Positions 7,165 to 47,600 of a stretch of DNA of 64,000 bases are shown here, one piece after another. Both the position numbers and the translations under genes were made by a program. Numbering within the stretch: position 1 is the first letter of the stretch; every line of letters starts with the position of its first letter. This DNA is from a virus: the IMG/VR virus record IMGVR_UViG_3300023499_000220, positions 113,645 to 177,644 of that record; one strand, 5' to 3'. The notes beneath the pieces are model-generated. The model saw nothing but the letters and a program-made list of their open reading frames with translations, was not told the origin of the DNA and did not search any database.

Positions 7165-7446
7165 TCAAACAAAAGCCAGAAAATCGTTGGCCGGAATCTG
7201 TCGCTGGGCATCGTAAGCGGTGCCGTAGACATCATCACCCCAACTGATTTGCACATCCTTCGTCCACAGAGCAAGCTCAGACATTTTTGCTGCCACGGCT
7301 TTTGCGGAGCTGCAGATATACTTCTTGACGGCGTTGTTTTCTTTTACGTTAATTGTAAACATTTCAATTTCCTCCTTAACACAACAAAAAACAGCCATCT
7401 CGATTGAGATGGCTGCACGAACAGATTTTGAACTAAAACAAGTCAA
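7165..7446 (-). CDS. hypothetical protein (93 aa)
   Basis: Intact ORF directly downstream of family-A promoter copy 3. Confidence 0.35.
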   Translation of the reverse strand: MTCFSSKSVRAAISIEMAVFCCVKEEIEMFTINVKENNAVKKYICSSAKAVAAKMSELALWTKDVQISWGDDVYGTAYDAQRQIPANDFLAFV

Positions 7447-7479
7447 GGAATTGATACTTTGATTTATCTTAGTTCCTTA

Positions 7480-7507
7480 ATTATATCTACTTTGCAGCAA
7501 TTGACAA
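7480..7507 (-). promoter_or_regulatory. Family-A promoter copy 3 (TTGTCA-16-TATAAT)
   Basis: Plus-strand text attata-tctactttgcagcaat-tgacaa. Confidence 0.6.
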
Positions 7508-7537
7508 GATAGCCACAACAGGAATGCAACATCGTAT

Positions 7538-7759
7538 TCACGGTACTTTTTCAACGACATCTTCACCGTAAACCACGAACAGACCAGAGCCGTTATCCCA
7601 GCGAACCATGATACTGCCGGTATCGTCTATACCTGAAACTGTGCCGAGTGTTCCAATAGGTGGAGCCTGAATATCATCCATTTTCAGCAGTTTCACGCGT
7701 GTTCCGGCTGGATATTCGGCACGGAGCGCAGCGACGATTTCTCGATTTGGGAAAGTCAT
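7538..7759 (-). CDS. DUF4314-like small protein (73 aa)
   Basis: The VSGIDDTGSIMVRWDNGSGL motif is typical of DUF4314, which is common on phages and conjugative elements. Confidence 0.45.
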   Translation of the reverse strand: MTFPNREIVAALRAEYPAGTRVKLLKMDDIQAPPIGTLGTVSGIDDTGSIMVRWDNGSGLFVVYGEDVVEKVP

Positions 7760-11360: not shown

Positions 11361-12332
11361 TCAGAAGACTTCGTCAAGTTTTGCACATACAATAAAACGA
11401 GTATCGTAATTATCACTGCCTGAACAGGTGGACAAAATCAAAACCTTATCATTCAATCCAACTTCTGTGGCGTACTGATTGTAAGAGTAAGCTTTCATAC
11501 TTGCAATCTCTGTCAGAAAATACGAATCATCCGGATTCGCAATGGTATAACTTGGGTCAATAGGATAATCGGCAACGGCAAAGATTTTCCATCGTGTCTG
11601 TTGTTCACCCAAAGTAAGATAAATATACCGATGTTCCTTTGCAAAGTTGACATCGCGAAAGTATTTCAAAACACTGAATTTCTTGTGCATACTATTTCCG
11701 TTGCTATGTCCAAAAATAACAGTTACTCTGTACATATCGTCAACATTGCTGACATTCCATTCGGAGGGAACAAAATAAGCGCCCCAGATACTTTCCCTAT
11801 CGAACTCATTGTGAGTCAGGTAATAATCATCGTCTGTGGGATGCTGCAAAATGGGCTCATCTGTAACATCAACGCCGGGAACAGTTAAGTAACCAACGGT
11901 GTTCTTGGAATACGCTGGCTTTGGTGTTGGTTCCGGTTCTGAATCACTCTCACTTGAATTAGAAGACGGGATAAGAATCGAGGGAGTAGAAACGGGTTCT
12001 TCTACATCGTCGGAGATGTTTCCTGTCTCATATGCAGGGATATGATAGTAATCATACGCCTTCCATCCAATATAGCCAATCATGGCAATAAGAACGATGC
12101 AAATTACGACCAACAAAACTGTCCAGATGGAAAATCGCCGTTTCTCTTTGCCCTCTGACACGTCCATCGCATCCATCGATTCATTGTCATCCTCGTCATG
12201 GCTTGCCTTTTGATGAGGGAAGTTTTCACCAGTTCCATCATCCTCATCATTTGGAATGTAATTGTACGCACCAAGTTCCTGTTCGAAATGTTCTTCTTCG
12301 GGCAGTGGTGGAATAATAGGTGTTTTTGCCAT
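11361..12332 (-). CDS. srtB: class B sortase (323 aa)
   Basis: N-terminal membrane anchor. SrtB-type VGYLTVPGVDV motif. Catalytic triad: His in IFGHSNG, Cys in LILSTCS, Arg in YDTRFIV. Confidence 0.75.
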   Translation of the reverse strand: MAKTPIIPPLPEEEHFEQELGAYNYIPNDEDDGTGENFPHQKASHDEDDNESMDAMDVSEGKEKRRFSIWTVLLVVICIVLIAMIGYIGWKAYDYYHIPAYETGNISDDVEEPVSTPSILIPSSNSSESDSEPEPTPKPAYSKNTVGYLTVPGVDVTDEPILQHPTDDDYYLTHNEFDRESIWGAYFVPSEWNVSNVDDMYRVTVIFGHSNGNSMHKKFSVLKYFRDVNFAKEHRYIYLTLGEQQTRWKIFAVADYPIDPSYTIANPDDSYFLTEIASMKAYSYNQYATEVGLNDKVLILSTCSGSDNYDTRFIVCAKLDEVF

Positions 12333-12343
12333 AATACATCACC

Positions 12344-13507
12344 TTACTCAGCTGCGGCAGACCGCTCGTACACATCAATGCAGTAGTTGCCCATAATCTT
12401 GTTGTACATGCACTCCTGTGCCAAAGGACCTGCCCCATAGGTATCAACGGCGTTATCGTAGTTACCGCCAATATAAGCTTTCACTTCATCGACAGACGGT
12501 TTATAGTCCTGTTCCTCTGCCAGATACTGCGCAACAAGGCTCAGTAAAACATTTTCTTCCGTCTGACTACGAAGACTTTCTGAATACTCCTCCGAGGTCT
12601 TATAATTGCTGTATGTCTGAACGAATGTCTCCAAGTCCATATTGTAGGCAGTTGCTTCGTTTTCGACATACTTCAAGTTGGTTTCAAGACTCAGGTTGAC
12701 AAGGTCTGTCGTATCCTTTTTGAGTTTTACATTGTCAATGAAATACTGTTCAATCTCATTCTGAATCTTATTCATACGAAGATTCTCTTCAACATATTCA
12801 CGAAGCAGGTCTACTGTAGTTACAGCAGTGCCGTCTTGCAGCTTGTAGCCACTCATGATACCGGCAACATCAGCATCTGTCATGCTATATTGAGAAATCT
12901 TATTAAGCGTTACATGGAAAACAGCTTCCTTGTTGGCGAGCTCGATAGTCTGCTCGCCTGTAGTTCTATCTGTTGTACTGCTATATCCATCAGGGAATGT
13001 TACCGTAACATCAAACGAATCCCCCGTGTTATGCCCGACGATTTGCTCTTCAAATCCGTCAATAAAGGTATTGGAACCGAGTTCCAAATCGTAGTCTTCT
13101 GTTGTTCCACCGGTAAAAGCAACACCATCAACCGTACCCTCATAGTCAATGTTCACAACATCACCTTCCTGTGCGGCGCGGTCTGTTACCTCTGTCGTCA
13201 GCTTGTAATTGGACTGAAAATAATCCAACTCGCTTTGAATCTCCTCGTCTGTAACGGCGTATACATCTTTGCTGACCGTATACTTCTTATAATCCTTGGG
13301 CATCTTTATGTATTTGGACGCAGTCACATCACGAAAATACCCGTCATCATCAAGACCGAGGTCATACTCAACAGCGGAAGCTGTTTCGGAGGTGGCTGTT
13401 TCCGCAGTCTCAGATGCACTTGTATCGGCCGTATCTTTACTGCACGCGGTCAATGCAATACATGCGGCACTGATGACTGCCAAAATCTCTTTTGCATTTT
13501 TTTTCAT
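12344..13507 (-). CDS. secreted lipoprotein with trigger-factor-like FKBP-type PPIase domain (387 aa)
   Basis: Signal peptide plus lipobox ALTAC. The stretch GDVVNIDYEGTVDGVAFTGGTTEDYDLELGSNTFIDGFEEQIVGH closely follows the trigger-factor PPIase-domain consensus. Confidence 0.65.
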   Translation of the reverse strand: MKKNAKEILAVISAACIALTACSKDTADTSASETAETATSETASAVEYDLGLDDDGYFRDVTASKYIKMPKDYKKYTVSKDVYAVTDEEIQSELDYFQSNYKLTTEVTDRAAQEGDVVNIDYEGTVDGVAFTGGTTEDYDLELGSNTFIDGFEEQIVGHNTGDSFDVTVTFPDGYSSTTDRTTGEQTIELANKEAVFHVTLNKISQYSMTDADVAGIMSGYKLQDGTAVTTVDLLREYVEENLRMNKIQNEIEQYFIDNVKLKKDTTDLVNLSLETNLKYVENEATAYNMDLETFVQTYSNYKTSEEYSESLRSQTEENVLLSLVAQYLAEEQDYKPSVDEVKAYIGGNYDNAVDTYGAGPLAQECMYNKIMGNYCIDVYERSAAAE

Positions 13508-13565: not shown

Positions 13566-13817
13566 TTAAACGAACAGGAACGGAACGTGAAGCAACAGAG
13601 CGTATGCCGCATCCATAATGCCAATAATAACGGCGGATACAGCACTCACAACAAGAACTGCTCCGGTTCGATGGAGCGTGTTGTGCATACTCGGCCAAGT
13701 CACATTTTTGGGTGCAACCAAATTGTGAAGCTTCTTAGGCGTGCTCTTGACGAAAGAAGGAATTGCCTTCACGAAATTCGCAATAGCCGTTCCTACCTTT
13801 TTCAGTTTATCTTTCAT
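13566..13817 (-). CDS. secE: SecE-like translocon subunit (about 84 aa from MKDKLKK; ORF extends to 13883)
   Basis: KNVTWPSMHNTLHRTGAVLVVSAVSAVIIGIMD matches the SecE consensus (KKVsWPtrkE..t..Vi...i...lD) with a single C-terminal TM segment. Its start overlaps the SecG stop by 4 nt. Confidence 0.65.
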   Translation of the reverse strand: MKDKLKKVGTAIANFVKAIPSFVKSTPKKLHNLVAPKNVTWPSMHNTLHRTGAVLVVSAVSAVIIGIMDAAYALLLHVPFLFV

Positions 13818-14068
13818 GCCGCACCTCCTACTCCGGTTACTACGAACATGATGATTGCAATAACAAGCAGAATAGCTGTACATACAGCAACCAGTTTATT
13901 TGCGGACGTTTTCGTGCTGTCTTTAGCACTCGAGCGCATTGTATCACTGATTCCGGTGATAACACTAAGACTGTTCTTGTCGGCCTTATCCATGGAAAGC
14001 GTAACCGCACAAACCAGAACAGAAACCAACAGAATCAAGATGCACAGAATGATTTCATAAATTGCCAT
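13814..14068 (-). CDS. secG: SecG-like translocon subunit (84 aa)
   Basis: Two TM helices flank a loop LSMDKADKNSLSVITG, comparable to the SecG LQssKsaGLSGAisGG loop. Immediately follows secY. Confidence 0.55.
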   Translation of the reverse strand: MAIYEIILCILILLVSVLVCAVTLSMDKADKNSLSVITGISDTMRSSAKDSTKTSANKLVAVCTAILLVIAIIMFVVTGVGGAA

Positions 14069-14083: not shown

Positions 14084-15424
14084 TCAATTCAAGAAACCCT
14101 TGTGATGGCGAACCACCAAATGGCTGTTAAGAGAATCGATAACTTCAAGCGTAACACCTGTGACAATCAACAGACTGGTACCGCCAAAGTGCATGTTCAG
14201 ACCTGTAACCGCAGTTGCCAAGATAGGCACACATGCAATAACCGAAAGAACAAATGCTCCCGAACCGGCGAGAGAATGGCAAGCATTGCGCAGATAATCA
14301 CTGGTAGCTTTGCCTGCTCGAATACCGGGGATACTGCCGCCGTTCTTGCGCAGGTTGTTTGCCATTTCGATGGGGTCGAATGTGATGTCGATGTAGAATA
14401 AGTTGAATGCGAAAATCAGGGCTACATACGCAACATCATAAATCCAATTCCGCGAATTCCAAGATGCCAGCGCCATATACAGGCTGGGGTGCTTGTTGTA
14501 ATCGAGGAACATCGTCACGAGAGACGGCATACTGCAAATGGTGGACGAGAAAATAATAGGCATAACACCCGACATAATCAGTTTGATGGGGATATAACTG
14601 GACTGACCAGTGGATGCTTTGTTCCCTACATTTTTACCGGCATACTGAACAGGAACGCGGCGCTCTGCATCGCTTGCGAAAACGACATAGAAGGTGGCCG
14701 CCAAAACAAAGAGGATGACGCCGGGAATCATCAGATAATACCACCATCCATTTTCTTTGCCCATTGCAATAGAGTTCTGGAACAACGAGATGACAGCATC
14801 CCATCTGGAAATGATACCGGTAAAGATGATAAGGGAAATACCGTTGCCAATACCTTTTTCGTCAATCAGCCATCCAAGCCAGATGACGATTTGAGAACCA
14901 GCAGTCAGAATGGCAATAACAGTAATGGCTTCCACGACCTGCGAAATGCCGGAAGTGTATTTCATCGCACCGTAGTTCTTCATAATAAAGAAGTACCCGA
15001 TAGCTGTTACGACCGCCAAACTACAACCAACATACTGCGTGATTTTATTGATTTGCTTCTGCCCGCCGATGTCCTTGCTGATTTCTTCCAGTTTCGGAAT
15101 CGCAACAGTCAAAAGCTGGATAATGATGCTTGCGTTGATGTATGCAGATACGCCAATCGCAAATACCGCACACTGAGAAAGTGCGCCACCGGAAACCAGA
15201 TTGTAATAATCCAGTACAGAGGTGCTTCCGAACATAGTCTGAAGCGCAGCGGTGTTTACGAACGGAATCGTAATACCGCAACCCAGACGATAAATCAGAA
15301 GACAAAGGATGGTGAAGAGAATCTTGTTGCGAACATCATCCACCATCAGCTTCTGAAAGATGGTGCTGTTCGAATAAGACTTTTTGAGTTTCGGCTTTTT
15401 CGCCGGATTTTTAATGTTGTCCAA
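14084..15424 (-). CDS. secY: SecY paralogue (accessory preprotein translocase channel, 446 aa, TTG start)
   Basis: Clear SecY signatures: ASIIIQLLTV, GIGNGISLIIF, PGIRAGKAT, FGGTSLLIV. Not part of an rplO-secY-adk operon. Confidence 0.9.
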   Translation of the reverse strand: MDNIKNPAKKPKLKKSYSNSTIFQKLMVDDVRNKILFTILCLLIYRLGCGITIPFVNTAALQTMFGSTSVLDYYNLVSGGALSQCAVFAIGVSAYINASIIIQLLTVAIPKLEEISKDIGGQKQINKITQYVGCSLAVVTAIGYFFIMKNYGAMKYTSGISQVVEAITVIAILTAGSQIVIWLGWLIDEKGIGNGISLIIFTGIISRWDAVISLFQNSIAMGKENGWWYYLMIPGVILFVLAATFYVVFASDAERRVPVQYAGKNVGNKASTGQSSYIPIKLIMSGVMPIIFSSTICSMPSLVTMFLDYNKHPSLYMALASWNSRNWIYDVAYVALIFAFNLFYIDITFDPIEMANNLRKNGGSIPGIRAGKATSDYLRNACHSLAGSGAFVLSVIACVPILATAVTGLNMHFGGTSLLIVTGVTLEVIDSLNSHLVVRHHKGFLN

Positions 15425-17809: not shown

Positions 17810-19208
17810 CGGGTTTTTTCTTTATTAAAGAGTCCCCGAATCGATTTACATGTTCTTTCGGCGGTTCAATGACCTCGATATCGGTATCCTCCACCTTTTC
17901 GATTTCGTCAGAGGAATCGTCATCTTTTTCGTTCTGAACCTTATCCGATGGATTGGTGATTTGTGCATCCTCTTTTGCAACATTTGAAAGCAAATCAAAT
18001 GTCAACTGAGAATTCGAGGACGCTGGTTTCTTTTCTCTTTTCTTGGTTGTTTGGCGTTTTTTGGAAGTTCTTTTTGACTTTACAGGTTCATTGGAACCAC
18101 CATCGTTTGTTTTTGCACTTGCTGTGTTTGAATCAACAACCGCATCCGCTGAAGCCTTATCCTTGTTTGTTTCTGTGACGGGTTCCTGAACCTTTTTGTT
18201 TTTTGATAAATCATCTTTGTCTGATTGTTTTGATTCCAAAGCAGAAGACTCTTGTGCGTTTGAGCCTTGCTCTTCTTGCACTACAGATTCTTCCTTTACT
18301 GGAACCTTGGCAGTTCCCTTCTGCAAAAGGCCATCGATTGCTACAACGGCCTCAGACTTCTTTTCTTCGGACTCCGCCTTTTGTACTGCACGGCGAATCG
18401 CCTCAGTTTTTTCTTTCTTTTCTTTTTCTGCTGATGCGGTATTTTCGCTTTCCTTTATCTCAGCAGGCACATTCATGGCAGATTTCGAATTCCACCACTT
18501 CTCAATAGTAGTAATCGTTCTTTCTACTAATATTATACCACAAAATTTGTGGTTTGACAACTTGCGGCTCGGCACAAAGCATACAATACCGCACAGAGAA
18601 ACAACCAGTAAAACAATAGCAAGTCCTGCATCAAAAATAAAACAGATAAACGACACCGGAATCAGCAGCTCGCAGATACCGCGCATGATAAATACTGTTT
18701 TATCTCCTTGGTCTTTTCGGTTTTGCATAAAACTGTCTCTCCCCTTCTGCGGGTGATAAGACAAACCACTTGACAAGCCGTTTGTTGCCCAATCACAAGG
18801 TATCTCGTAAGTCTTTTCTCCTAAGCTGTCTGTGTACTGAATTACAGCAATATCAAAATATTCACCATTCTTCTGTGATGCCAAGAATGCACGTAAGAAT
18901 TCATTTCCAACAGACCGCGCAGGAACAATAATCGTTTCGATGCCGTCAGAATCTTTTGCGGCGATATCTACTACATAGGTATCATCTTCACCGCGCCATA
19001 CGTTCTGCACAATACCGCGCACCAATATACCGCGCTTATGAACACGCCTTCCCATAAAAGTAAAGGAGTTTTCAGAATACCACGTGTTTACCATGCAATA
19101 CGCAGCAATAATAAGCAATGTAAGGTACTTAACATTTATGGTGATAATGCTTAAAGAAAAAATATACGGAACGAGCATCAGCAAGACGAATGATACAAAG
19201 CTATTCAC
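17784..19208 (-). CDS. membrane protein with disordered Lys/Glu/Ser-rich C-terminal region (474 aa)
   Basis: Two N-terminal TM segments and internal TM segments. Low-complexity tail. Confidence 0.45.
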
Positions 19209-19888
19209 TTTGAATCACCGCCTTCGCCAAATCCGTCCAAAAAGACAAGATTTTCTTTTGTGTGTTTCTTTTTTTGTTCAATAACTTCTTTTTCAGCTTC
19301 TTGTTTGACTTTATCGTACGCTTCCAACGGACTCATAGAAGGTACTGATTTCTGCGTATCAGCAGGGACGATAGTATCATCGTTTTTGACGGCTGTCGTT
19401 ACACGACTGCAGGTTACGAGATTTCTGTCATTAAACGCAGTTACGCCATCCTCATTTGATTTAAAAATAAAGTCATACATAGCACCAACGAAGAAAGAGT
19501 TTTTAACGTTTTTCTTTGATTCGTTGACGCTGAGGAAAAAATCGTATTTTCCGTTTTTGTCGATAAACTCTCCATCCTCATTGACAGGGATGATTCGATA
19601 GGTTGAAATCTGCTGGCGAATCATATTTTTGCTGGACTCATCGGATACAACAATTCCCTTAACAGTCTTATACCGTTCATTTTTTTCATCATTATGAATC
19701 TCATAAATTTGAAAAATAAAATAAGCGGCGCACATCAAGCCGATGAGAAGAATCTTCCACTCCTGCATTACAACAACACCGAAAATAGAAGCAATCAAGA
19801 ACAGAATAGCGATAAGCCCATTCTTCACATACATAGATGTGATAAGAGATTTGCAATCCGGATGATAAATCTTAGACATTTTATTCAC
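19205..19888 (-). CDS. membrane protein (227 aa)
   Basis: Two TM helices near the N-terminus. Confidence 0.4.
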
Positions 19889-20942
19889 CGCCTTCTACGT
19901 TAGAATCTTTATCTGCGCTGTTTGTCGTACTGGCAGACTGTAAAATGCTTGCACCCTGCTCATTCAGAACATCCTCGATTGTCTTGTCGCGTAGTTTAAT
20001 GCTGGACAAGACGACATCGTAAGACTCCCCAGACGAAGTAGTTACCCGTGCGATATATTGAATGGTCGTATCCCCCGCAAGCAATGCGCCATCTATTGTT
20101 TGCTTCTGACGATTTCCATCTTTATCTTCGGTCTCAACCACATACATATCCTGTGACGCTTTTTGTGCAGATACAGAAGACGTCATAACAATATCTCCGG
20201 CCTTCATATCAGAGGTCGCGAACTTGTTTACGATAGAACCTGTTCTATCCACAAAGAACACGGGAGTATCCTGCTGCATCTTCCCGTCGCCGTCTACGAA
20301 ATGCGAACCGCATAAGGATTCGTATTCGTTGACACTCAAAGTCTTATAGCTGAGTTCTGAATCCTCGATGGTATCCCCGGAAGGAATATCCACATTTACG
20401 ACAGCAACTTTATATTCTCCGGTAAGCTGTCCACTGATTTGGACCCAGTTTGTGTATACGAAGAAGCCAATAGCGATGGCGACAACGGCAACAATGAACA
20501 TTGCGATACCGATATTACGCTTGTTATTGTTTTTAATGATTTGTGCCTGTTCTAGGATTTCCTTACTGGCATGCTTAGTATCTTTAAGCGTCTGGTTTGC
20601 TTCATCCAGTGTATCGCTTGTCTTTGTAAGCACTTCGTAAGCTTTGGTCTCTCTATGGCCGACATTCACATTCAGCCCTTTTGCGCCATTGTTGTTGGCA
20701 GACTTTGCATTGTTATATTCGGCGCGAAGCGTTTCCACAACGGAATCGTCAAGCGTCATCTGTTCCCCGTTGGGCAGAATTACCGTACCATCATCATAGA
20801 CATCGAAAACACGTTCCTTGCCTTCATACATGGCGCGTACCTGACCGATAACGTAATGTTCGTTCATGTTTATCACACCCCTTATCTCTTGTACTTTTCG
20901 AACACCTTGCGCGAAGGAGCTCTCGGGCCGCACATCTTGCAC
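19881..20942 (-). CDS. single-pass membrane protein with possible SAF/CpaB-like domain (353 aa)
   Basis: The TM segment FIVAVVAIAIGFFVY is followed by YKVAVVNVDIPSGDTIEDSEL, which resembles CpaB/SAF. Weak. Confidence 0.35.
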   Translation of the reverse strand: MQDVRPESSFAQGVRKVQEIRGVINMNEHYVIGQVRAMYEGKERVFDVYDDGTVILPNGEQMTLDDSVVETLRAEYNNAKSANNNGAKGLNVNVGHRETKAYEVLTKTSDTLDEANQTLKDTKHASKEILEQAQIIKNNNKRNIGIAMFIVAVVAIAIGFFVYTNWVQISGQLTGEYKVAVVNVDIPSGDTIEDSELSYKTLSVNEYESLCGSHFVDGDGKMQQDTPVFFVDRTGSIVNKFATSDMKAGDIVMTSSVSAQKASQDMYVVETEDKDGNRQKQTIDGALLAGDTTIQYIARVTTSSGESYDVVLSSIKLRDKTIEDVLNEQGASILQSASTTNSADKDSNVEGGE

Positions 20943-21392: not shown

Positions 21393-22454
21393 TTAAACGC
21401 GAGCGTCAATCAGGCAATTCAGCAGCCCGTTCGCGTCACAGCCAAACAATAAGCATCCGAACACACCAATGGCATGTCCTTTTCTGGTAGAGAATGTTCC
21501 TGCCGTAACACCAAGATGCCCGGCAATCTGCTCATCTGTCCAGTTGTACTTTTTCCCCTCAATCATTGCAAGGATAACGTCATAATAACGTTGACCAAGC
21601 GGAAACTGTTTCATGATTTCGACAGCCCCTCGTATGAGTTTCACATACTCCACAATGAGATAGGCATCGCTTCTGTTTTTATCAGAAACTTTGATTTTAC
21701 TCAAATCTTCGTACGAAGAAGACCCAAGCAGCTTCATGGCGGGGTCCTTTGACCGTGAGGCACGATACAGAATACGCGTGTATTCCGTAAGGAGCAGCGG
21801 AACATTATGATAAAGGCTTGCTTCTTCTACCCCGTCCACATCACTGCTTGTCATCAGGATTTTATAATATTCCTTGATAACACTACCTGCTGTATTGTAA
21901 ACGGATTCAATGCACCGCTCGCAATACTTCATGATTTTGATGCGTCCATTCTTCGGAAGAACGGCGGGATTCAAAAAGCAATCAAACACCTCCCGCATGC
22001 TGGAACAATAATCGACTTCGTACAAGAGTTCTAACCGCGACTCCTCAATGGCGTCAAGAAGCATCTGACAACTTTCGAAGTATTCTTTGCGTTTCCTGAA
22101 ATGCAAAGACTCTTCCTCAATGTTCGGAGCCAGCCAGCTCTGAATACGGCGCAAACGGGAAATGGCTTCGACATCGCACATCTCATCGTCGTGAACGTTT
22201 TCACAGTTCTGCATCATGACATCAAGGTCTTGTGCCTGCATCATCCATTTGAGTGCCGGATACAATATCATCAGAACAGCCGCTTCTTTCAGTTCCGGCC
22301 GCTCTTCCACAACACGGTTTACGCACTTTGTCAGCACATAAGAATTGGGGATGTCTCCGCCAAAACTTCTACGCAGAACAATGTTGTCCTGCATAATAGC
22401 ATCGAGCAATGCGTAAAGCTGCTGTTCTTGGGCTTTATTCAATGCTTCGGACAA
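21393..22454 (-). CDS. divergent sigma-factor-like protein (353 aa)
   Basis: The C-terminal LGQRYYDVILAMIEGKKYNWTDEQIAGHLGVTAGTFSTRKGHA fits the sigma-70 region 4 HTH pattern (RxVfxLrxxeGxsxxEIAxxLGxsxgTVKSRlhRA). Confidence 0.4.
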   Translation of the reverse strand: MSEALNKAQEQQLYALLDAIMQDNIVLRRSFGGDIPNSYVLTKCVNRVVEERPELKEAAVLMILYPALKWMMQAQDLDVMMQNCENVHDDEMCDVEAISRLRRIQSWLAPNIEEESLHFRKRKEYFESCQMLLDAIEESRLELLYEVDYCSSMREVFDCFLNPAVLPKNGRIKIMKYCERCIESVYNTAGSVIKEYYKILMTSSDVDGVEEASLYHNVPLLLTEYTRILYRASRSKDPAMKLLGSSSYEDLSKIKVSDKNRSDAYLIVEYVKLIRGAVEIMKQFPLGQRYYDVILAMIEGKKYNWTDEQIAGHLGVTAGTFSTRKGHAIGVFGCLLFGCDANGLLNCLIDARV

Positions 22455-24209: not shown

Positions 24210-25169
24210 TTAAATTTCACCGCTCATGGTCAGCTTTGCACGAGCCATGATTTCATATCCTTTTGCATTTGCGGTTACATCCGTCAAGAAGAAAAGGTTC
24301 TTGGTGTCAATGGCTCGCTCGATGCTTTCGCGCATCATAGCAGAACCACCACCCATAAAGATGAAATAGGATGTTTTGAAATCGTCCTTGATTTTTTCGG
24401 AAATCGTACGAATCAATGCTGTTGCATAATTGTCTGCGGTTTCCTTGGCAATTTTCACGGCGTTTTCATCGACCAGCATGTTGTTGTTCCCTGCAAGGAT
24501 TGCCTCAGCCATGTAGTCATCGACCGACAAGGAACAATGGACACGCAGCTCGCTCTCGACAGTGCTCAGGAGTTCAATGACTCCACGGTCATAGCTTTCG
24601 CAGAAAGAAAGGTCCGGAGCATAAGTGTTGCTGCGACCAGAGAAACGAATCACATCCGTGGTATACCCGCCGATGTCTACAACATAAGAACGGGGATAGC
24701 GCTTGATTTCCTTCTGAATCTCGCCTGCTGCCGTAATAGAAAAGCCCTGAGGATAGACAAAGACGTGCTTGACAGTAATCTCGAACGGGATATCTTTGTA
24801 CATGAAATTGATGAGTTTCCCGTTTTTGCCGAAATACTCATCATACTTCGCTTTCAGGGACATATGCTGCGGGGGCAAGCCCATCGCGAGGCATACATCG
24901 TATTTGTAGAATTTCTGATTGGGATACTTCTTTATAAGGTTCTTTGCTACGGCAATCAGCGTCAGCAAAAAGTAAGTATCATCCTTCGTCTTATCCTGCT
25001 GATAAGGCGTGCGGCTGTCATTGAGAGAATAATACTTCCCCATATAGCACATCGTCTCTCCCTTGATAGCCGGTTCAGTCGTACCGTGACGAACAAGACC
25101 AGTGGGAAACGGCTCACAGCCAGGCGTCTTCATTGCCTTGTTTCCGGTATCTACTCCAATAATCTCCAT
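24210..25169 (-). CDS. parM: ParM/StbA-type actin-like segregation ATPase (320 aa from MEIIGVD; ORF open to 25346)
   Basis: Phosphate-1 motif IGVDTGNKAMK and phosphate-2 motif VVDIGGYTTDV. GGAGG ribosome-binding site 7 nt upstream of the ATG at 25169. Confidence 0.8.
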   Translation of the reverse strand: MEIIGVDTGNKAMKTPGCEPFPTGLVRHGTTEPAIKGETMCYMGKYYSLNDSRTPYQQDKTKDDTYFLLTLIAVAKNLIKKYPNQKFYKYDVCLAMGLPPQHMSLKAKYDEYFGKNGKLINFMYKDIPFEITVKHVFVYPQGFSITAAGEIQKEIKRYPRSYVVDIGGYTTDVIRFSGRSNTYAPDLSFCESYDRGVIELLSTVESELRVHCSLSVDDYMAEAILAGNNNMLVDENAVKIAKETADNYATALIRTISEKIKDDFKTSYFIFMGGGSAMMRESIERAIDTKNLFFLTDVTANAKGYEIMARAKLTMSGEI

Positions 25170-25406
25170 AAAAAATCCTCCGAACGAGTCGCAATATAGT
25201 TGAAAGTACGAATTTTGGGATACTCTGCGTGATAAAATATAAGTGTCTACCAGATAACAATGGGACTCACTGACTGATGCATAGCGGTTGTTAAAATGGA
25301 AAGAACAACTAATATACAACTGTCTGTTGTTATCATGATACCACACATGCAGTTGTCCAGCAACGAACTTTTGTTCGCATAGGCAACAAAAAGAAAGGAG
25401 TTATTT

Positions 25407-29036: not shown

Positions 29037-29555
29037 TTAAATAATCGAGAACTTACGCTTTTTGTTTGTGAACTCAACAATCATAGAAGGACGACGACTG
29101 CCGATAGTCTCTTTCCGATTCTCAGAGTCAATGAACAGATAAGGGTTCGTCATCTTGATTCTGGCAGGCAGAAACTTTACCCTTACTCCCTGCTGTCCAT
29201 AAATGTATCTCTGGAACCAGTCAGAGTCCGTAGAAACGGGTAAAAGCATGACGACCGTGGTATTCTTTTTCCTTGACTCCTCGTACGCCTTGCGCACCCA
29301 CAACTTAAAGGACTTATGCCCTGTCGGGGGATTGCAAAATACTGTTTCACCTTTCCAGTCCTGCAAGAGGCCATCGACACGCTCCGTGTAATATTTCTTG
29401 CATTTATGATTTTTGTCCGATGCAGCCGCATCCAGAGTGAAACCGTATTCCTTGTTCAGGTCATCGAAAAGCCCCTGAGGCGTCTCCCATTCCTGTTTGT
29501 GAGTATTCTTGACTGCATAAGTCTTATCCGTTGTTTTCGTTTCTACGCTGTTCAT
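29037..29555 (-). CDS. dam: phage-type DNA N6-adenine methyltransferase (Dam family, 172 aa)
   Basis: EWETPQGLFDDLNKEYGFTLDAAAS and the catalytic-loop variant NPPTG match the small phage Dam family (PF05869-like). Confidence 0.65.
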   Translation of the reverse strand: MNSVETKTTDKTYAVKNTHKQEWETPQGLFDDLNKEYGFTLDAAASDKNHKCKKYYTERVDGLLQDWKGETVFCNPPTGHKSFKLWVRKAYEESRKKNTTVVMLLPVSTDSDWFQRYIYGQQGVRVKFLPARIKMTNPYLFIDSENRKETIGSRRPSMIVEFTNKKRKFSII

Positions 29556-31223: not shown

Positions 31224-32759
31224 TTATTTTATATCGCTTGCGTTTTCGTCAGGTTCGATGTGTGCATTGTCATCAGCCTTCTCGATTACAGGCAAACCGT
31301 GAATGTTGATATTGCGGTCAGTCTTAGCATTGATACTGTTCGCACGAACGATATCGGCCATATCGATACCGGTAGCTTCCTTGACGGTCTGCATGGTCTG
31401 TGCCATCAGCACGGGAACATTCCCAGACACGCCGGAAACGCCAGATGCATCGCCGCCAATGATAGACACCTTATCGATTGCGGACAAGGGCTGAGCCACA
31501 TTCTTAGCAATATCAGGCAGGACCTTGATAAGCATTTCAGCGACAGCAGCATCGTTGTACTGCTTGTAAGCTTCCGCCTTTTGCTTCATAGCTTCGGCTT
31601 CAGCAATACCCTTCTGACGGATAGCCTCAGCTTCTGCCTTACCTACAAGGGCAATACCTTCGGCTTCCTGCTGCTTTGCAAATTTCTGAGCCTCAGCAGC
31701 GCGTTCGGCTTCGTATTTTTTTGCTTCTGCTTCTTTTTGGCGTTTATACAATTCGGCATCCGCAGCTTTGCGAACCTCTGCATCCAGTTTTCTCTGCTGA
31801 ACCTCGGCTTCCTGTGCAGCAAGGTCGACCATCTTCTTCTGCTTTGCGATTTCCGCATCAGCTTCGGCTTCCTTGATTTCCTTGGCGCGAAGATTTGTCT
31901 GAATCTGTCCTGCAGCGTTGGCATCAGCAGCAGCCTTGTCAGCCTCGGCTTTCAATTTGGCCTTTGCCAGCTGCAATTCATTGTTGCGCTGTGCAATAGC
32001 AGTCTGGGCTTCAACTTCCTTTTCATTGGCTGCCATTTCAGCGTCAGCCTTTGCGCGAGCAATATCACGAGCGGCTTCGGCACGAGCAATCTCTGCACGT
32101 TTCTTGACGGCTTCTTCCTGCTCAATACCAATAGCCTCAATGACGCCGTGATTGTGACCCTGCGCATCAACGGCGTCTTTTACATCCTGCACATTGAATG
32201 TTACAACTTCGAGGCCCATCTTTGCAAGGTCAGGACGGGCATTTTCGATTACTGACAGCGCCATTTGTTTACGATTTGTGAGAATCTGGTCAACCGTCAT
32301 ATCCGAAACGATTTCGCGCAGGTTGCCTTGCAAGACATCATTTACTTTATCATTGATGCCTTTTTCGTCCATGCCAAGGAAGTTCGAAATAGCCGACTGC
32401 TGACGACCCGTAATATATTCCTTGACATCCTTTGCACCAGATGCCTGAACCTCAGAGTCGAGAACAGTAGAATTATCGCTGTATACCTGAATCGTTACAA
32501 CAGAATCAATCCAGAGCGATACGCCTTCTTTTGTCTTGACACCCGTCTCAGGGGTTTTGACATCAATTTTCAGAAGACGCATATTCAGCTTATCTGCACG
32601 CTGCAGCACAGGGATGACAAATGTACCCTTTCCACAAACGACCTTGGGCTTTTTCAAGCCGAATCCAGTCACAACGATGGCTGCTGTGGGAGGCGCTTTT
32701 TTGTAGCATGTGAATGCGAACAAAACAAACAATACGACAATGATGATTCCTAAAAACAT
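31224..32759 (-). CDS. flotillin / SPFH (band-7) domain protein (511 aa)
   Basis: N-terminal TM segment, SPFH domain, and a long Ala/Glu/Lys-rich coiled-coil (EA-repeat) region typical of FloT/YqiK flotillins. Confidence 0.85.
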   Translation of the reverse strand: MFLGIIIVVLFVLFAFTCYKKAPPTAAIVVTGFGLKKPKVVCGKGTFVIPVLQRADKLNMRLLKIDVKTPETGVKTKEGVSLWIDSVVTIQVYSDNSTVLDSEVQASGAKDVKEYITGRQQSAISNFLGMDEKGINDKVNDVLQGNLREIVSDMTVDQILTNRKQMALSVIENARPDLAKMGLEVVTFNVQDVKDAVDAQGHNHGVIEAIGIEQEEAVKKRAEIARAEAARDIARAKADAEMAANEKEVEAQTAIAQRNNELQLAKAKLKAEADKAAADANAAGQIQTNLRAKEIKEAEADAEIAKQKKMVDLAAQEAEVQQRKLDAEVRKAADAELYKRQKEAEAKKYEAERAAEAQKFAKQQEAEGIALVGKAEAEAIRQKGIAEAEAMKQKAEAYKQYNDAAVAEMLIKVLPDIAKNVAQPLSAIDKVSIIGGDASGVSGVSGNVPVLMAQTMQTVKEATGIDMADIVRANSINAKTDRNINIHGLPVIEKADDNAHIEPDENASDIK

Positions 32760-36284: not shown

Positions 36285-39200
36285 TTACTGCTTCTTTTCC
36301 TCGGTTTTATCCTCAGGCTTTTCAGCAGCTTTTTCTTCGCTATCGCCATTCTTCTTCTTGACGATGACAAATGCGCCAACACCAATCAGAGCAACAACAA
36401 CGATAACAGGAACGATAACTTCTGCGCCAAAACCAACGCCAGTCTTGTAGTTGACTACAACAGGTGCCGGAGTGGGAGCGGGTTCATTCTTGACTACAGG
36501 AGTCGGAGTCGGTCTGCTTTCTTCCGGAGGATTCTCCAGCTTAACACTTGCTACCCGAACATCACCGTAGTTGCCTGCCTTATCGACTGTACGGGTCACA
36601 ATGTAACCAGTCCAATCGGGGCTCAGCTTAAAGGTGACGTAACCGTTGTCCTTATCAATGTTTGTAACATTGACAGTCTCGAACTTGGTTTCGTCGAAGG
36701 TGTAATCGCCATCAGCACTCTTGGCAATAGCAGAACCATTGACCTTGTAATACTGAATCTTAGCGACACCGGAGTTGTACTCGCCATCCAGAGCGGAGAT
36801 AGCAGGAACGGAATCCTTGACCTTTACAACAGGCACGAAGTCGGGGTCTTCGGTATCATCCTTGCCACCGTTTTCGTCGGGAGTAGCAACGACATCGTTA
36901 CCGTTTTCATCACCGGTCTCGTCGCCGGTTGTGAAGAGAGCGGGCTTACCATGAGCAATACGAAGCGTAGTGGCTTCGGTCTTGTCATTGGTCGTTTCGG
37001 TCTTTTCGGACTCGGCGGGAACCTTCTCATCTGTACCGGATTCGGTTTTATCCTTCTTACCGGAATCTTCCTTCTTGTCGGTATCGTCCTTCTTATCGTC
37101 CTTCTTATCGTCGTCCTTTTCGGGAGCCTTGCCAGTCTCTTCACCAGTAATGAACACATTGATGGTGCTCTCGAACTTGACGAACTTCTCGTTCAGCAAA
37201 TCGGTCTTATTGGTGGAATCAACCTTATCGGCAGCGAAAGCAGAAGCAACGACAGGAGCTTCGGTATCAACAGATGTGGTGATAGTTCCCATCTCGGTAA
37301 TGGCACCGGTCTTCAGGTCAATCAGGTAATAGGTAGAAGTAACCTTCTCACTATTAGCGGAAATGACCATCTTCTCGGCCCACTCAGCATCGGTCAGGGA
37401 ATCGCTGGTTCCGATTGCGTAACCCTTAGGAGCGATAACTTCAACCTTAGAGTTGAAGTACAGGCCACTCAGGTCATCAGTCGTCTTCTTGGTAACCTCA
37501 ACAGGCTTACCGGTCTTTTCGTCAGCCACAGTACCAACGATAGTTGCGGGTTCTACATCGGCAAGATGCAGACGCTGAACTTCGAGGTCTCCGGTGGTAG
37601 GCAGGTAATTGTAGTTGTCGTAAGCGCCGCCAACATACTTGAAAGCGTCCTTCGTCAAACCAACATTACCGAAGATACCATCGATGCTGGAAGCAACAAT
37701 GAGTTCGAAGGAAGGCAGCTTAACGGTTTCAGCAGTCTCGTCGAAAGCGTAACCACTGGTCTTGATTTCGGGAATCTCCGTCTTAGTGCCATACAGCTTG
37801 ACGACGGGGTTCGGGTCGAGAGTAACCGTCAGGTCTTTACGAGCGATAACGAACTGACCATCGGCTTCGTTCTTATCGGCATCGACGACATTGATTGTTA
37901 CTGCGTAATTCTGCTCAACAGCAGCATCGTAATCAGAGGTAACGGTGTAGGTGTAAGTACCAGCGTTCTTGACGTTTTCAGTCTTGAACTGGCTGTCACT
38001 CTCCACGCCGTCATCGCCGCTTGCAATATCAGGAGTCAGAGTAGCCTTTGCATCAGCGGTCAAGGGAGCAGTCTGTGCATTGTCGGTGGTCTTGTCATTC
38101 TCGAAAGGAGTATAAACAAGCGCCATTTTCAGGCCCAGAGAATCAGGCTTGACAGCTGCACCGTGCGTACCATCGCCATTGGTGGCAACAGCATTTACGG
38201 TGAAGTCTGGGTTAGTGGTATCGCCATAGACGATATCCTTGGGCTCGGTGACAGTGACTTCGACCAGACGCTCGCCAATAGTATAAACGCCATTAACAAT
38301 CGTAATCAGGTAATCGTCATTGTCGTAAGAACCGACCATGTCGTATGCACCGTAATTCTTGACAGATTCGGGCACGCTCTCCGCAACCAGAGAAGCAGCA
38401 CCATCAGCAGACTTCATGGAAATCTCTTCGGCAACCGCATTCTCAACATCCTTCTGAGTGATGCTGATAATAGCTTTCAGGTCATCGCCATTTACGATGG
38501 TCTTCTTATCGGCATCGCCAGTATAGGTAAGAGTATTGCTCAGTTCAGCCATTTCATTGCCGTAGACAGAACCAACAGTGCCGATGGTCCAAGTCAGAGG
38601 ACGCTGAGTGACCGTGTAAGTGCCGTTCATAGCAGTTACCAGATAATCCTGATAAGAAGCCTGACCGACGCGGTGAGCCAGACCGGAGAAGGAAGGAACA
38701 ATGTCATAGCCTCCGACATGGCTTGCAGAAGTGACGAGGCACAGGTTCGTGCCTTCCAGAATATCACCATTGACCAGAGCTGCCTTGGCAGTGTCACCAG
38801 TGTATTCCAGAACGTTCACGGTACCGTAATCAGACCAATCTTCAACAGCAACATCGTCGCCATAGATAGAAGTCTGGGGTTTAGCGGTGACAGTGATGGG
38901 ACGCTTGTCGATAACAAAATCAACGGGAGCGTAAACAAAGGTGTAGTTGTTTGCTGCGGCATTCTCAACATTTGCAGGAACGACCTTGCCGGTACCAGCG
39001 TGAGAAGCTACCGTTGCGGGAGCTCCCTCAGCATCGGTGAAGTTGAAGGTCAGGTTTGCAATGCTCAGGACACCAGCATCATCAGGAGTGGTGTTGCCCT
39101 TGACGGGTTTCACAACGAATCCATCGAAAATCAGGTCGTCGCCGGAGAGAACAGGGTTCTCATCGCCGTAAATCTTGCTCTGGGGAGCCAGAGTAACATT

Positions 39201-44667: not shown

Positions 44668-47600
44668 TTATTCAGCGGAATCATCCTTATGGTTATCTTT
44701 GTTGTCGTTTTCGTCCTTCTTGCGCTTGTGGTTTACTACCACCAGAGCAGCGACGCCAATGCCAACCATTGCTACCAGACCAACAATGCTCTGTGCAAAT
44801 CCGATACCCGTCTTCTTGTTGCTCGTGAAGATAGAGAAGAGGGAGAAGGGTTTGCCGTCTACCTTGAAGATATCGAGCCAACCAATCGGCGGGGTCTTGG
44901 GCTTCTCAGTAGGAACAGGGGTCGGAGTAGGCTTCGGGTTGTCGGGAGTCGGAGTCGGTTTAGGCTCGTCAGGCGTTGTGGGAGTAGAGGGCTTCACAAC
45001 AGGGACTTTCACCTCGTTGGAAGGTTTCTCTACATCTTCATCAATCGGCTTGGACGGGTCCTTACCATGACCCGGATTCTCGGGGTCTTCGGGATTCTGA
45101 CCCGGAGCCTTAGCGACAGCCACGTTAATGACATCGTGTCCGGCATCCGCGTCAACGGCAACATAAGAATAGGTCAGAGTGAAGGATTCGCCAACAGGGA
45201 TACGAGCAATAGTGAACGTTGTCGTTGCGCTATTGTAAGTATATCCATCACCGTTCTGGGCTTCAATATGGCTTGCGCCGTCATTGTTGTCCTTTACGGT
45301 TACATTGACAAGGTCTACTTCACCGGTATTGGTTACTACCACACGATAATTGATGGTTTCACCGACATTGACTTTCGTCTTGTCAGCACTCTTCACAATC
45401 GTGAGGCTCTTTTCGAGCGGAATATCAGTTTCCGTACCGGAACCCGGAACTTCCACATCGACCTTGTTGGACGGAATATCCGTATCAGGGTCAATCGGTT
45501 TCGTCGGGTCTTTACCCTGTCCGGGATTCTCCGGGTCTTCGGGGTTCGTACCGGGAACATGAATCGTCGCTACGTTTTCAAGAATGTGCGTAGTCACATC
45601 GGCGATACCGACAGTATAAACGTAGTGGACAACCACATCGCCACCAGCAGGAATCGTGTCGATGGTGAATACACCATTCTCATAGTGATAACCAGCGCCA
45701 TCCACTGCGAAAATGCTTCCGGAGAAGTTATTCTCATCAGTCAGAGCAGCATTCTGAATATCGTGGTCTTTGCCATTGTGTACCGTTACGGTATAGGTGA
45801 CAGTCTCACCCGGCTTTGCGACAGTCTTGTTTGCAGACTTCCAGATGGTGACAACGCCATCATCAGGCTTCTTCACATCGACTGTATTGGACGGGATATT
45901 ATACTGCTCGCCATCGTGCGTGTACTTAATGGTTGCGGTATTTTCCATAACGCTCTCATCGGTCGTCTCTACCGTATAGGTATAAACGATATCAAGAGCC
46001 TCACCGGCATCCAGATAACCGATAGTCCAAGTACCGTCTCCGTTATAGGTATAGCGGTTAGAACTCTCAGCCGTAACATCACCCGCAAAGTTGTTATGGT
46101 CTGCGACAGTGATATCGTTTACGGTTTCGTCTGTCATATTCTTCACCGTAATGGTGTAGGTCACAACATCTGTCACCTTAGCGATATACTTATCGGCATC
46201 CTTTTCAACATCGATAGGCGGTGTCGGGTCTTTCACAACAGCAGCGTTCAGAACCTTAGGAGCATCAGCGGTAACTACCACATAGGTGAAGTTAAGCGTT
46301 ACGCTCTCGCCAGCCTTTACAGTGCTGATGGTATAGGAGTTGTCGCCGTTATCCGCAACGCCATCCATGGGCACAAAGTTGAGCGTTCCGTTGCCATCGA
46401 AGAAGTCTTCGACCACAACATTTTCTGCATCAGCCTTGCCCTTGTTGGCGACAGTAACCGTATAGTTGAGCGTATCGCCAACCTTGGCTTCTGCCTTATC
46501 AACGGACTTGGTGATTTCGATTACAGGAATCTCTGTTTCGGTTTCAGAGCCGGGAACTTCCACATCAACCTTGTTGGACGGAATCTCCGTATCGGGGTCA
46601 ATGGGCTTCTCGGGGTCTTTGCCGTGACCCGGATTATTCGGGTCTTCAGGATTCGTGCCGGGAACATGGATTGTTGCAATGTTTTCGAGAATCTGCGTGG
46701 GCACATCAGCAATTTCAACCGTATAGGTGTAGTGGATAACCACATCACCGCCTGCGGGAATCTTATTGATTGTGAATTCGCCGTTCTCGAAGGTGTAATC
46801 TGCACCGTCAACGCTTACGATTTCACCAGCAAAGTTGTTGGTATCTGTCAGACGAGCGTTTTCGATGTCGTGATTCTTTCCGTTATGAACCGTGACGGTA
46901 TAGGTTACAACCTCACCCGGCTCAGCCTTTGTCTTATCTGCAGCCTTGCGGATGGTAACAACACCATCATCGGGCTTCTCGACATCGACGGGGTTAGAGG
47001 GAATATTGTAATCTGTGCCATCCTTGCTGTAAGTCACATTTGCAATGTTTTCGATGACGGTGGCATCCTCAGCCTGCATCGTATAGGTGTAGGTGATATG
47101 GATGGTCTCGCCAGCGGCAATAGTCGGAATAGTCCATGTCTTATTGCCATTGTAAGTGTACTTGTCAGCGTTTTCGGCCTTGATTTCGCCCTTGAAGTTG
47201 TTAGTATCGGTGACGGTTACATTGTCAACAGGCTCAGAAGTGGTGTTCTTCACGGAAATCGTGTAGGTTACAACCTCATCTACCTTTGCAATGTGCTTGT
47301 CGGCTTCCTTCTCAACGTCAACAGGCGGTGTCGGGTCTTTGATTACTGCGGCGTTCAGTACGAGAGGTTCGTCTCCTTCAACTACAACATAGCTGAAACG
47401 AAGTTTTACGCTCTCCCCTGCCTTGACCGTAGAAATTGTGTAGGTGTTGTCTCCGTTATCTGTCACGCCATCCATGGCCTTGAAGTTCAGCGTTCCGTTT
47501 CCGTCAAAGAAATCCTTAATCAGGATATTCTCAGCATCCGCGTTACCGCCGTTCTTGACAGTGACGGTGTAGTTTAGCGTATCACCAATCTTGGCAGTAG

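Follow-up and report, generated by a model that had tools for sequence, protein, structure and literature searches.

Two giant surface proteins, P1 and P2, encoded on the minus strand of a 64,000-nucleotide stretch (hereafter the window) of the IMG/VR virus record IMGVR_UViG_3300023499_000220 (positions 113,645 to 177,644), share a short motif ahead of their C-terminal hydrophobic segments, and comparison with their relatives in five clades gives for it the consensus [N/Q/P]-x-[K/Q/P]-T-G-[V/I]-G-hydrophobic. With moderate confidence we read both segments as sortase sorting signals that would be cut after the threonine and handled by a class B sortase encoded in the same window. The window is part of a Hodor-type conjugative megaplasmid of the human gut, group G2, matched by description only to the main text of a preprint (Yuan et al., bioRxiv preprint, February 2026; PMC12934698). 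Sortase anchoring of both giants has already been proposed in that text, and proline-less class B signals are already documented; the contribution of this work lies in a consensus drawn across clades, in showing that the motif occupies the same position as LPxTG signals, and in a corrected definition of the motif, in which N, K and F prove not to be conserved.

A preliminary description of the window, made from its letters alone, had pointed to a shared N-[Y/K]-K-T-G-[V/I]-G-F on both giants, and the motif is indeed present as quoted (Table 1): a degenerate DNA pattern for N.KTG[VI]GF has exactly two sites in the window, one in each gene, and gave no match in 100 dinucleotide-preserving shuffles of it, so that chance is excluded. 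No other open reading frame (ORF) of the window, in any of the six frames, carries.KTG followed by a hydrophobic stretch. The C-termini are otherwise unrelated, as had been stated, the last 300 residues of P1 and P2 showing no significant similarity (BLASTP E = 0.59) and a sole alignment made up of the linker and the signal; since the shared residues are written with differing synonymous codons (ACT/ACG, GGC/GGT, GGT/GGA), the match does not derive from a recent DNA copy. P1 ends in PAPVVVNYKTGVGFGAEVIVPVIVVVALIGVGAFVIVKKKNGDSEEKAAEKPEDKTEEKKQ and P2 in FTSNKKTGIGFAQSIVGLVAMVGIGVAALVVVNHKRKKDENDNKDNHKDDSAE, each followed by the stop codon, and NYKTG and NKKTG lie 3-6 residues ahead of the hydrophobic run. 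The tripartite architecture of motif, hydrophobic segment and K/R cluster is real and shared by the two proteins, but the part that follows the hydrophobic segment is long (24 residues in P1, 21 in P2) and mostly acidic past the first K/R cluster; likewise, a Pro/Thr linker exists, but in P2 it is a hydrophobic stretch, IGWLDIFKVDGKPFSLFSIFTS, and not the linker that directly precedes the motif. The motifs start 55 (P1) and 50 (P2) residues from the C-terminus and thus lie outside the range of 17-45 residues from the C-terminus used in a screen for sortase substrates (PMC4155245). At the other end of the proteins, signal peptides were read by eye as MQKPRKRFLSAIVAVAMCLSQFAPVTAYA in P1 and MQKGKTWQRVASAVLAVMMTMSTFSSTIAYA in P0067, a near-identical full-length P2 of 7323 residues, to whose C-terminal 6443 residues the P2 of the window is 98.7% identical. 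In one G2 variant (L176, ~18700-18872) the linker unit PTPTPVVKNEPA is tandemly duplicated right before the P1 motif, which is a length polymorphism of the Pro/Thr stalk.

Table 1. Features of the window, with positions counted from its first nucleotide (TM, transmembrane).
Feature	Position	Strand	Description
P1	36285..44240	minus	2651 residues from ATG; surface protein with N-terminal signal peptide and MBG (YGX-type) repeats
P1 motif N-Y-K-T-G-V-G-F	36429..36452	minus	predicted sortase cut between T and G
P1 complete C-terminal signal	36288..36452	minus	motif, hydrophobic segment of ~25 residues, KKK, 21-residue mixed-charge, mostly acidic extension
P2	44668..>64000	minus	giant DUF11/DUF7507-repeat surface protein, N-terminus beyond the window; full length ~7323 residues
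P2 motif N-K-K-T-G-I-G-F	44797..44820	minus	
P2 complete C-terminal signal	44671..44820	minus	motif, hydrophobic segment, NHKRKK, 15-residue acidic extension
Membrane-anchored class B sortase (by modelled fold)	11361..12332	minus	323 residues: acidic N-terminal tail, one TM helix, linker, catalytic domain
Trigger-factor/FKBP-type peptidyl-prolyl isomerase	12344..13507	minus	lipoprotein signal (LTAC); predicted extracytoplasmic foldase
SecE homologue	13566..13817	minus	PF00584, E = 4e-8
SecG-like protein	13814..14068	minus	84 residues, two TM helices; PF03840 profile positions 1-68 of 70, 18.4 bits, below the 29.2 cut-off
SecY homologue	14084..15424	minus	PF00344, E = 1.6e-86
ParM/Alp7A-like actin	24210-25346	minus	between Sec-sortase cassette and adhesin operon
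Dam-type N6-adenine methyltransferase	29037-29555	minus	between Sec-sortase cassette and adhesin operon
Flotillin/SPFH protein	31224-32759	minus	between Sec-sortase cassette and adhesin operon
Conserved gene directly downstream of P1	35156..35860	minus	clade-2 homologue has a lipoprotein signal

The order P2, P1, small conserved gene is kept in five clades, of which clade 1 is group G2, with the window, and clade 2 is its sister clade, group G1. The signals of P1 and P2 read NYKTG-VGF and NKKTG-IGF in G2, the former unchanged in all clade-1 variants, and QAPTG-VGL and NKKTG-IGF in G1; in a third clade P2 has NKQTG-IGF (P1 was not recovered), and in two more distant clades P1 has QSQTG-VGI or QSQTG-VNV and P2 has DP[SA]KTG-VG[LPV]. 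Among the 25 distinct sequences from both proteins and all five clades, T-G is present without exception (25/25), V or I follows it in 24 (the odd row is anchored on an upstream TG, its true motif being TGI) and G comes next in 23, N standing there in one clade. Ahead of T-G, and writing cleavage positions as site P4, site P3 and so on to keep them apart from the two proteins, site P4 is N, Q or P, site P3 is free and site P2 is K, Q or P. The conserved signal first described, NxKTG with the adjoining G-F, is therefore real in its core but too narrow in its definition: N, K and F are clade-specific, T-G-[VI]-(G) is the conserved part, and only T-G-[VI] is invariant. All eight residues of the P2 motif are the same in G1 and G2 despite synonymous codon changes, which indicates selection on the motif, while between the two groups the hydrophobic segment differs by 7 substitutions and the stretch just ahead of the motif by a 13-residue indel. 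P1 orthologues diverge ahead of T-G and are conserved from T-G to the end of the hydrophobic segment. A 13-residue hydrophobic insertion upstream of the motif, WLDIFKVDGKPFS, occurs in P2 of G2 (44821-44890, minus strand) and of the third clade (P0068) and is lacking in P2 of G1 (L021).

A profile of the motif alone, run against 5.8 billion proteins, gave nothing at E <= 10. An exhaustive search with the P2 C-terminus retrieved close homologues that end in DPSKTG-VGL, NPATG or NPGTG, and distant DUF11 giants of Gram-positive bacteria have LPxTG, LAxTG or NPKTG at the equivalent position, with a TM segment and an Arg-rich (RRR-type) tail behind it; the motif thus stands where these proteins have a genuine sortase signal. 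In the distant clades the tails are short and canonical (RRKKK, SRKKKDE and NKKGGKKK, each up to the stop codon), so that the long acidic form seen in G1 and G2 is derived. For the distant DPSKTG/QSQTG clades, which are absent from IMG/VR and do not overlap the loci of the sortase, a physical link to a sortase was not found. The loci L207-L217, on human gut contigs of up to 267 kb and possibly the 'distant Hodor relatives' to which the preprint's main text refers (PMC12934698), keep the P2, P1, small-gene order, have short canonical tails and share between both giants a longer pre-motif block, PTF[IV]...TGV.

Sites cut by intramembrane proteases typically have small residues (G-x-G) where the TM helix begins. 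The conserved segment could on that ground be a processing or shedding site for another protease, for example of the rhomboid or site-2 type; alternatively, the similarity could be functionless, inherited or due to chance. We regard this group of explanations as very improbable: proteases of these types were not seen in the window, the shuffles exclude chance, and synonymous variation with a conserved peptide denotes selection.

The enzyme to which we attribute the cut, identified as SrtB in the preliminary description, is by its modelled fold and its catalytic residues a class B sortase. The residues His209 (FGHS), Cys303 (STCS) and Arg312 (TRF) are invariant across 28 homologues and align with the triad of Clostridium perfringens SrtB; the closest solved relatives are the SrtB proteins of C. 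perfringens, Listeria monocytogenes, Clostridioides difficile and Staphylococcus aureus. The catalytic domain, taken as residues ~140-323 (with VVNYKTGVGFGAE, TSNKKTGIGFAQS and AAQAPTGVGLSAN as candidate substrate peptides), is modelled by AlphaFold2 with a predicted local distance difference test score (pLDDT) of about 90 or more, and a Foldseek search with the model placed class B structures in all of the top 19 PDB matches (E 1e-15 to 1e-11, target template modelling scores 0.66-0.85), classes A, C and E appearing only at ~1e-7. The protein is nevertheless divergent in sequence, with 78.1 bits for TIGR03064, below the 153.75-bit cut-off, and Pfam PF04203 was not reported on it at E <= 1 and was weak or faint on its relatives. 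Its sole relative in GTDB species genomes, 31% identical, is encoded in a metagenome-assembled genome of Lachnospiraceae (JAQXJP010000003.1; L025 8802-10573, chromosomal), directly downstream of the gene for a small secreted putative substrate of 255 residues that ends in SPKTGAGMPVWPAIALFSVVGIAVCGKKMHSL (SPKTGAG, TM, KK), a signal of the C. difficile type. The same locus adjoins capsule or exopolysaccharide genes. Sortase relatives at 38-51% identity stand in other contexts, where a substrate within 10 kb was not found. In the locus of a 42% identical sortase (L032 10001-20091, GCA_020047415.1, JAHZTL010000674.1), the genes that come after it encode a SipW-like signal peptidase, three TasA/camelysin-like proteins with SipW-type signal peptides (two match Peptidase_M73) and a protein of more than 2165 residues, and this is a different sortase-associated surface module.

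In the window the sortase gene closes a cassette for SecY, a SecG-like protein, SecE and a foldase, which is kept in three clades, including one whose sortase is 69% identical. The counterpart of the SecG-like protein is named SecG in the preprint, whose main text gives the module as hyp-SecY-SecG-SecE-trigger factor-class B sortase (PMC12934698). Given its lipoprotein signal (LTAC), the trigger-factor homologue would work extracellularly, as PrsA does, and not at the ribosome. A SecA was not seen in the window. The adhesin operon of G1 ends 5.5 kb upstream of SecY; in the window ~20 kb of other genes lie between the cassette and the adhesin operon. According to the same main text, the gene of the >7300-residue protein in a G2 Hodor is co-transcribed with its three downstream neighbours (PMC12934698).

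Several observations weigh against the processing of P1 and P2 by this enzyme, or by any sortase. The tails are long and acidic, which is atypical of a sorting signal, and their ends are conserved (EEKKQ or KEDKQ in P1, 36288-36350; DDSAE, NESAE or KSDAE in P2, 44671-44715), which would be odd if they were discarded. The curated sorting-signal models all stay below threshold: TIGR01167 (LPXTG_anchor) reached 15.2 bits (P1, 43-residue query) and 13.5 bits against a cut-off of 15.9, with truncated queries only, Rumino_NPXTG 9.5-11.6 against 23.5, and the SrtB-target models did not match the window signals. In IMG/VR motif and TM segment occur together on no further protein; scans there for N.KTG[VI]GF returned 135 loci, and only in the known P1 and P2 orthologues among them do motif, TM segment and stop share one reading frame. 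The many matches of sample 3300045988 (L082-L152) are an out-of-frame conserved DNA stretch recurring in ~17 large 'viral' contigs of an unrelated abundant element family. A precedent also counts on this side, as C. difficile SrtB did not cleave the proline-less NVQTG of CbpA in vitro in two independent studies (PMC4155245, PMC4371152), a warning against deducing function from a pattern alone. The two substrates of one element further differ at sites P4-P2, the positions that set specificity in known sortases (QAPTG and NKKTG in clade 2), the sortase gene is 24 kb away from the adhesins in the window, and a class A sortase is reported on G2 Hodors in the preprint's main text (PMC12934698).

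The first of these points suit a plain membrane anchor, in which P1 and P2 would remain uncleaved single-pass proteins, T-G-[VI]-G would be a juxtamembrane or helix-start feature and the charged tail would have a cytoplasmic role. Acidic tails of 21-30 residues, conserved to the very end in clades 1-3, would then make sense, as would the pattern in P1 orthologues, where what is conserved is T-G with the whole hydrophobic segment and not the residues before it; the subthreshold models and the failure of NVQTG point the same way. Against it stand the LPxTG and NPKTG signals at the same position in homologues, the short canonical tails of the distant relatives, the P2 motif, better conserved than the hydrophobic core beside it, and the sortase, a fixed member of a conserved module. 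On balance we hold an anchor of this kind to be possible but rather doubtful.

The remaining points would fit a genuine signal processed by a different sortase, either the class A enzyme of the megaplasmid or a housekeeping enzyme of the host, the class B sortase having other substrates. The preprint's main text reports class A sortases in G2 Hodors and classes A and C in G1, and states that 'class A and/or B' sortases may act on the giant proteins (PMC12934698); the distance between genes in the window and the dissimilar sites P4-P2 of the two substrates agree with this division of labour. The motifs, however, have neither the L nor the P of LPXTG, and their first residue (N, Q or P) is of the class B kind; it is the class B gene that sits in the Sec/foldase cassette, which is kept across clades and lies near the adhesins in clade 2, and an SPKTG substrate accompanies a related SrtB. 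Processing by another sortase seems unlikely to us.

If P1 and P2 are substrates of the plasmid's class B sortase, as we prefer to read them, they would be exported via Sec, possibly through the plasmid's own SecYEG, and the C-terminal hydrophobic segment together with the K/R cluster would hold them in the membrane. A sortase would cut between T and G of the consensus and join the threonine carboxyl to host peptidoglycan, and the most likely enzyme would be the class B sortase of Table 1, a member of that same conserved module for secretion, folding and anchoring. It is probably T-G and the following [VI]-G that govern recognition, with loose requirements at sites P4-P2. We infer that cleavage occurs, where the cut falls, which enzyme makes it and what the primed-side residues do, and the same applies to the distinct specificity that the co-encoded SrtB was suggested to have and may possess. 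A more ambitious reading, somewhat unlikely when taken as a whole, joins these points: the sortase would read mainly Thr-Gly and the primed [V/I]-G-hydrophobic at the membrane interface, tolerating nearly any residues at sites P4-P2 (NYK, NKK, NKQ, QAP, QSQ, PSK), and together with the plasmid's own SecYEG and the lipoprotein foldase would provide a private path of export, folding and anchoring for displaying the giants on phylogenetically diverse Bacillota, the long, conserved acidic tail serving as a targeting or retention element. If the signal is cut in the way proposed, the plasmid would carry a complete route of its own for placing two very large adhesins on the wall of any Bacillota host, which would bear on the conjugative spread of these megaplasmids in the human gut; a proline-less, primed-side-dependent motif would also join the short list of class B specificities and be of interest to protein-ligation engineering.

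As to the element, the main text of the preprint describes Hodors as conjugative megaplasmids of 211-389 kb from the human gut, with 47.1% GC in G1 and 44.6% in G2 (PMC12934698). The window's backbone GC of 0.444 fits G2, and the sister clade, at 0.47-0.48 and including a 389-kb contig, fits G1. The sortase gene is present on metagenomic contigs of 278-378 kb and in IMG/VR 'viral' contigs of 240-389 kb, and the related loci come from human gut metagenomes; no nucleotide match to the element was found in PLSDB and INPHARED. In the same text the Hodor giants have 7309-7704 and ~2642 residues, each beginning with a signal peptide and closing with motif, TM segment and basic tail, and they are called putative sortase-anchored proteins, likely attached by sortases that Hodors encode (PMC12934698). 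P1 corresponds to the ~2642-residue protein described there, and homologues of its C-terminal domain are confined to the two Hodor groups. Among the other genes, Rep_3, ParA/B and type IV secretion system genes lie outside the window, which also encodes a PIN protein; a paralogy of the 353-residue ORFs 19881-20942 and 21393-22454 was not borne out. Some G2 copies (L002, L003, L005, 3974-5077) have an IS605-family OrfB/TnpB insertion ~5 kb from the sortase, which the window and L001 are without.

Window and Hodors are alike in the ParM-like gene, the Sec-sortase module, the two giants, the MBG domains of the ~2650-residue protein and the gut source; the motif sequence is not stated in the main text of the preprint (PMC12934698), and the cross-clade consensus and the distant relatives were worked out here. 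An identity with Inocles, giant elements of oral Streptococcus (PMC12340149), was ruled out by GC content and habitat. Inocles are likewise giant plasmid-like elements with a sortase of their own and LPXTG-like surface proteins, but their GC content is 24-32%, their sortase is of class A and their habitat is oral, against 44-50% GC and a gut source for the window, and the elements are unrelated.

Among known class B signals, NPQTN of S. aureus and NPKTG of Bacillus anthracis are accompanied by NAKTN and NPKSS of L. monocytogenes ('NXXTX'), both SrtB-dependent (PMC8225981, PMC4010754). The signals studied here resemble this type in Asn at site P4 (three of the four clade-1 and clade-2 signals), Lys at site P2 and Thr at site P1, and in the class B fold of the enzyme; both window signals have Asn at site P4 and Thr at site P1, Asn being replaced by Q or P in related clades. 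They lack Pro at site P3, where P1 has Y and P2 has K. The preliminary description had noted that this proline is normally considered essential, a view contradicted by Listeria NAKTN and by the (E/Q/V)(V/P)PTG signals of Streptococcus pyogenes Spy0129 (PMC3019223), and the dispensable proline of Listeria SvpA is a point of likeness (PMC8225981, PMC4010754). Set beside the failure of C. difficile NVQTG, the success of NAKTN makes the lack of proline cut both ways. NXXTX systems differ in that their substrates serve haem uptake and are not giant adhesins, and in an acidic primed side in place of [VI]-G-hydrophobic. For conserved residues after T-G there is nonetheless a precedent in the B. anthracis SrtB, whose activity needs residues at sites P5, P2' and P3' (PMC11987632).

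The C. difficile SrtB, with its (S/P)PxTG signals (PMC4155245), is similar in the K-T-G core and in a general anchoring role instead of haem uptake; the SrtB proteins of C. perfringens and C. difficile are among the nearest structures, and the Lachnospiraceae relative is paired with SPKTGAG, while the proline at site P3 is absent in clades 1-3. With Spy0129 the likeness lies in the class B fold (3psq, E about 4e-12) and in the clade-2 P1 signal, QAPTGV, which resembles QVPTG with its proline beside Thr (PMC3019223); Spy0129 is a pilin sortase, whereas no sign of pilin polymerisation was seen here, and the window signals have K, not P, next to Thr.

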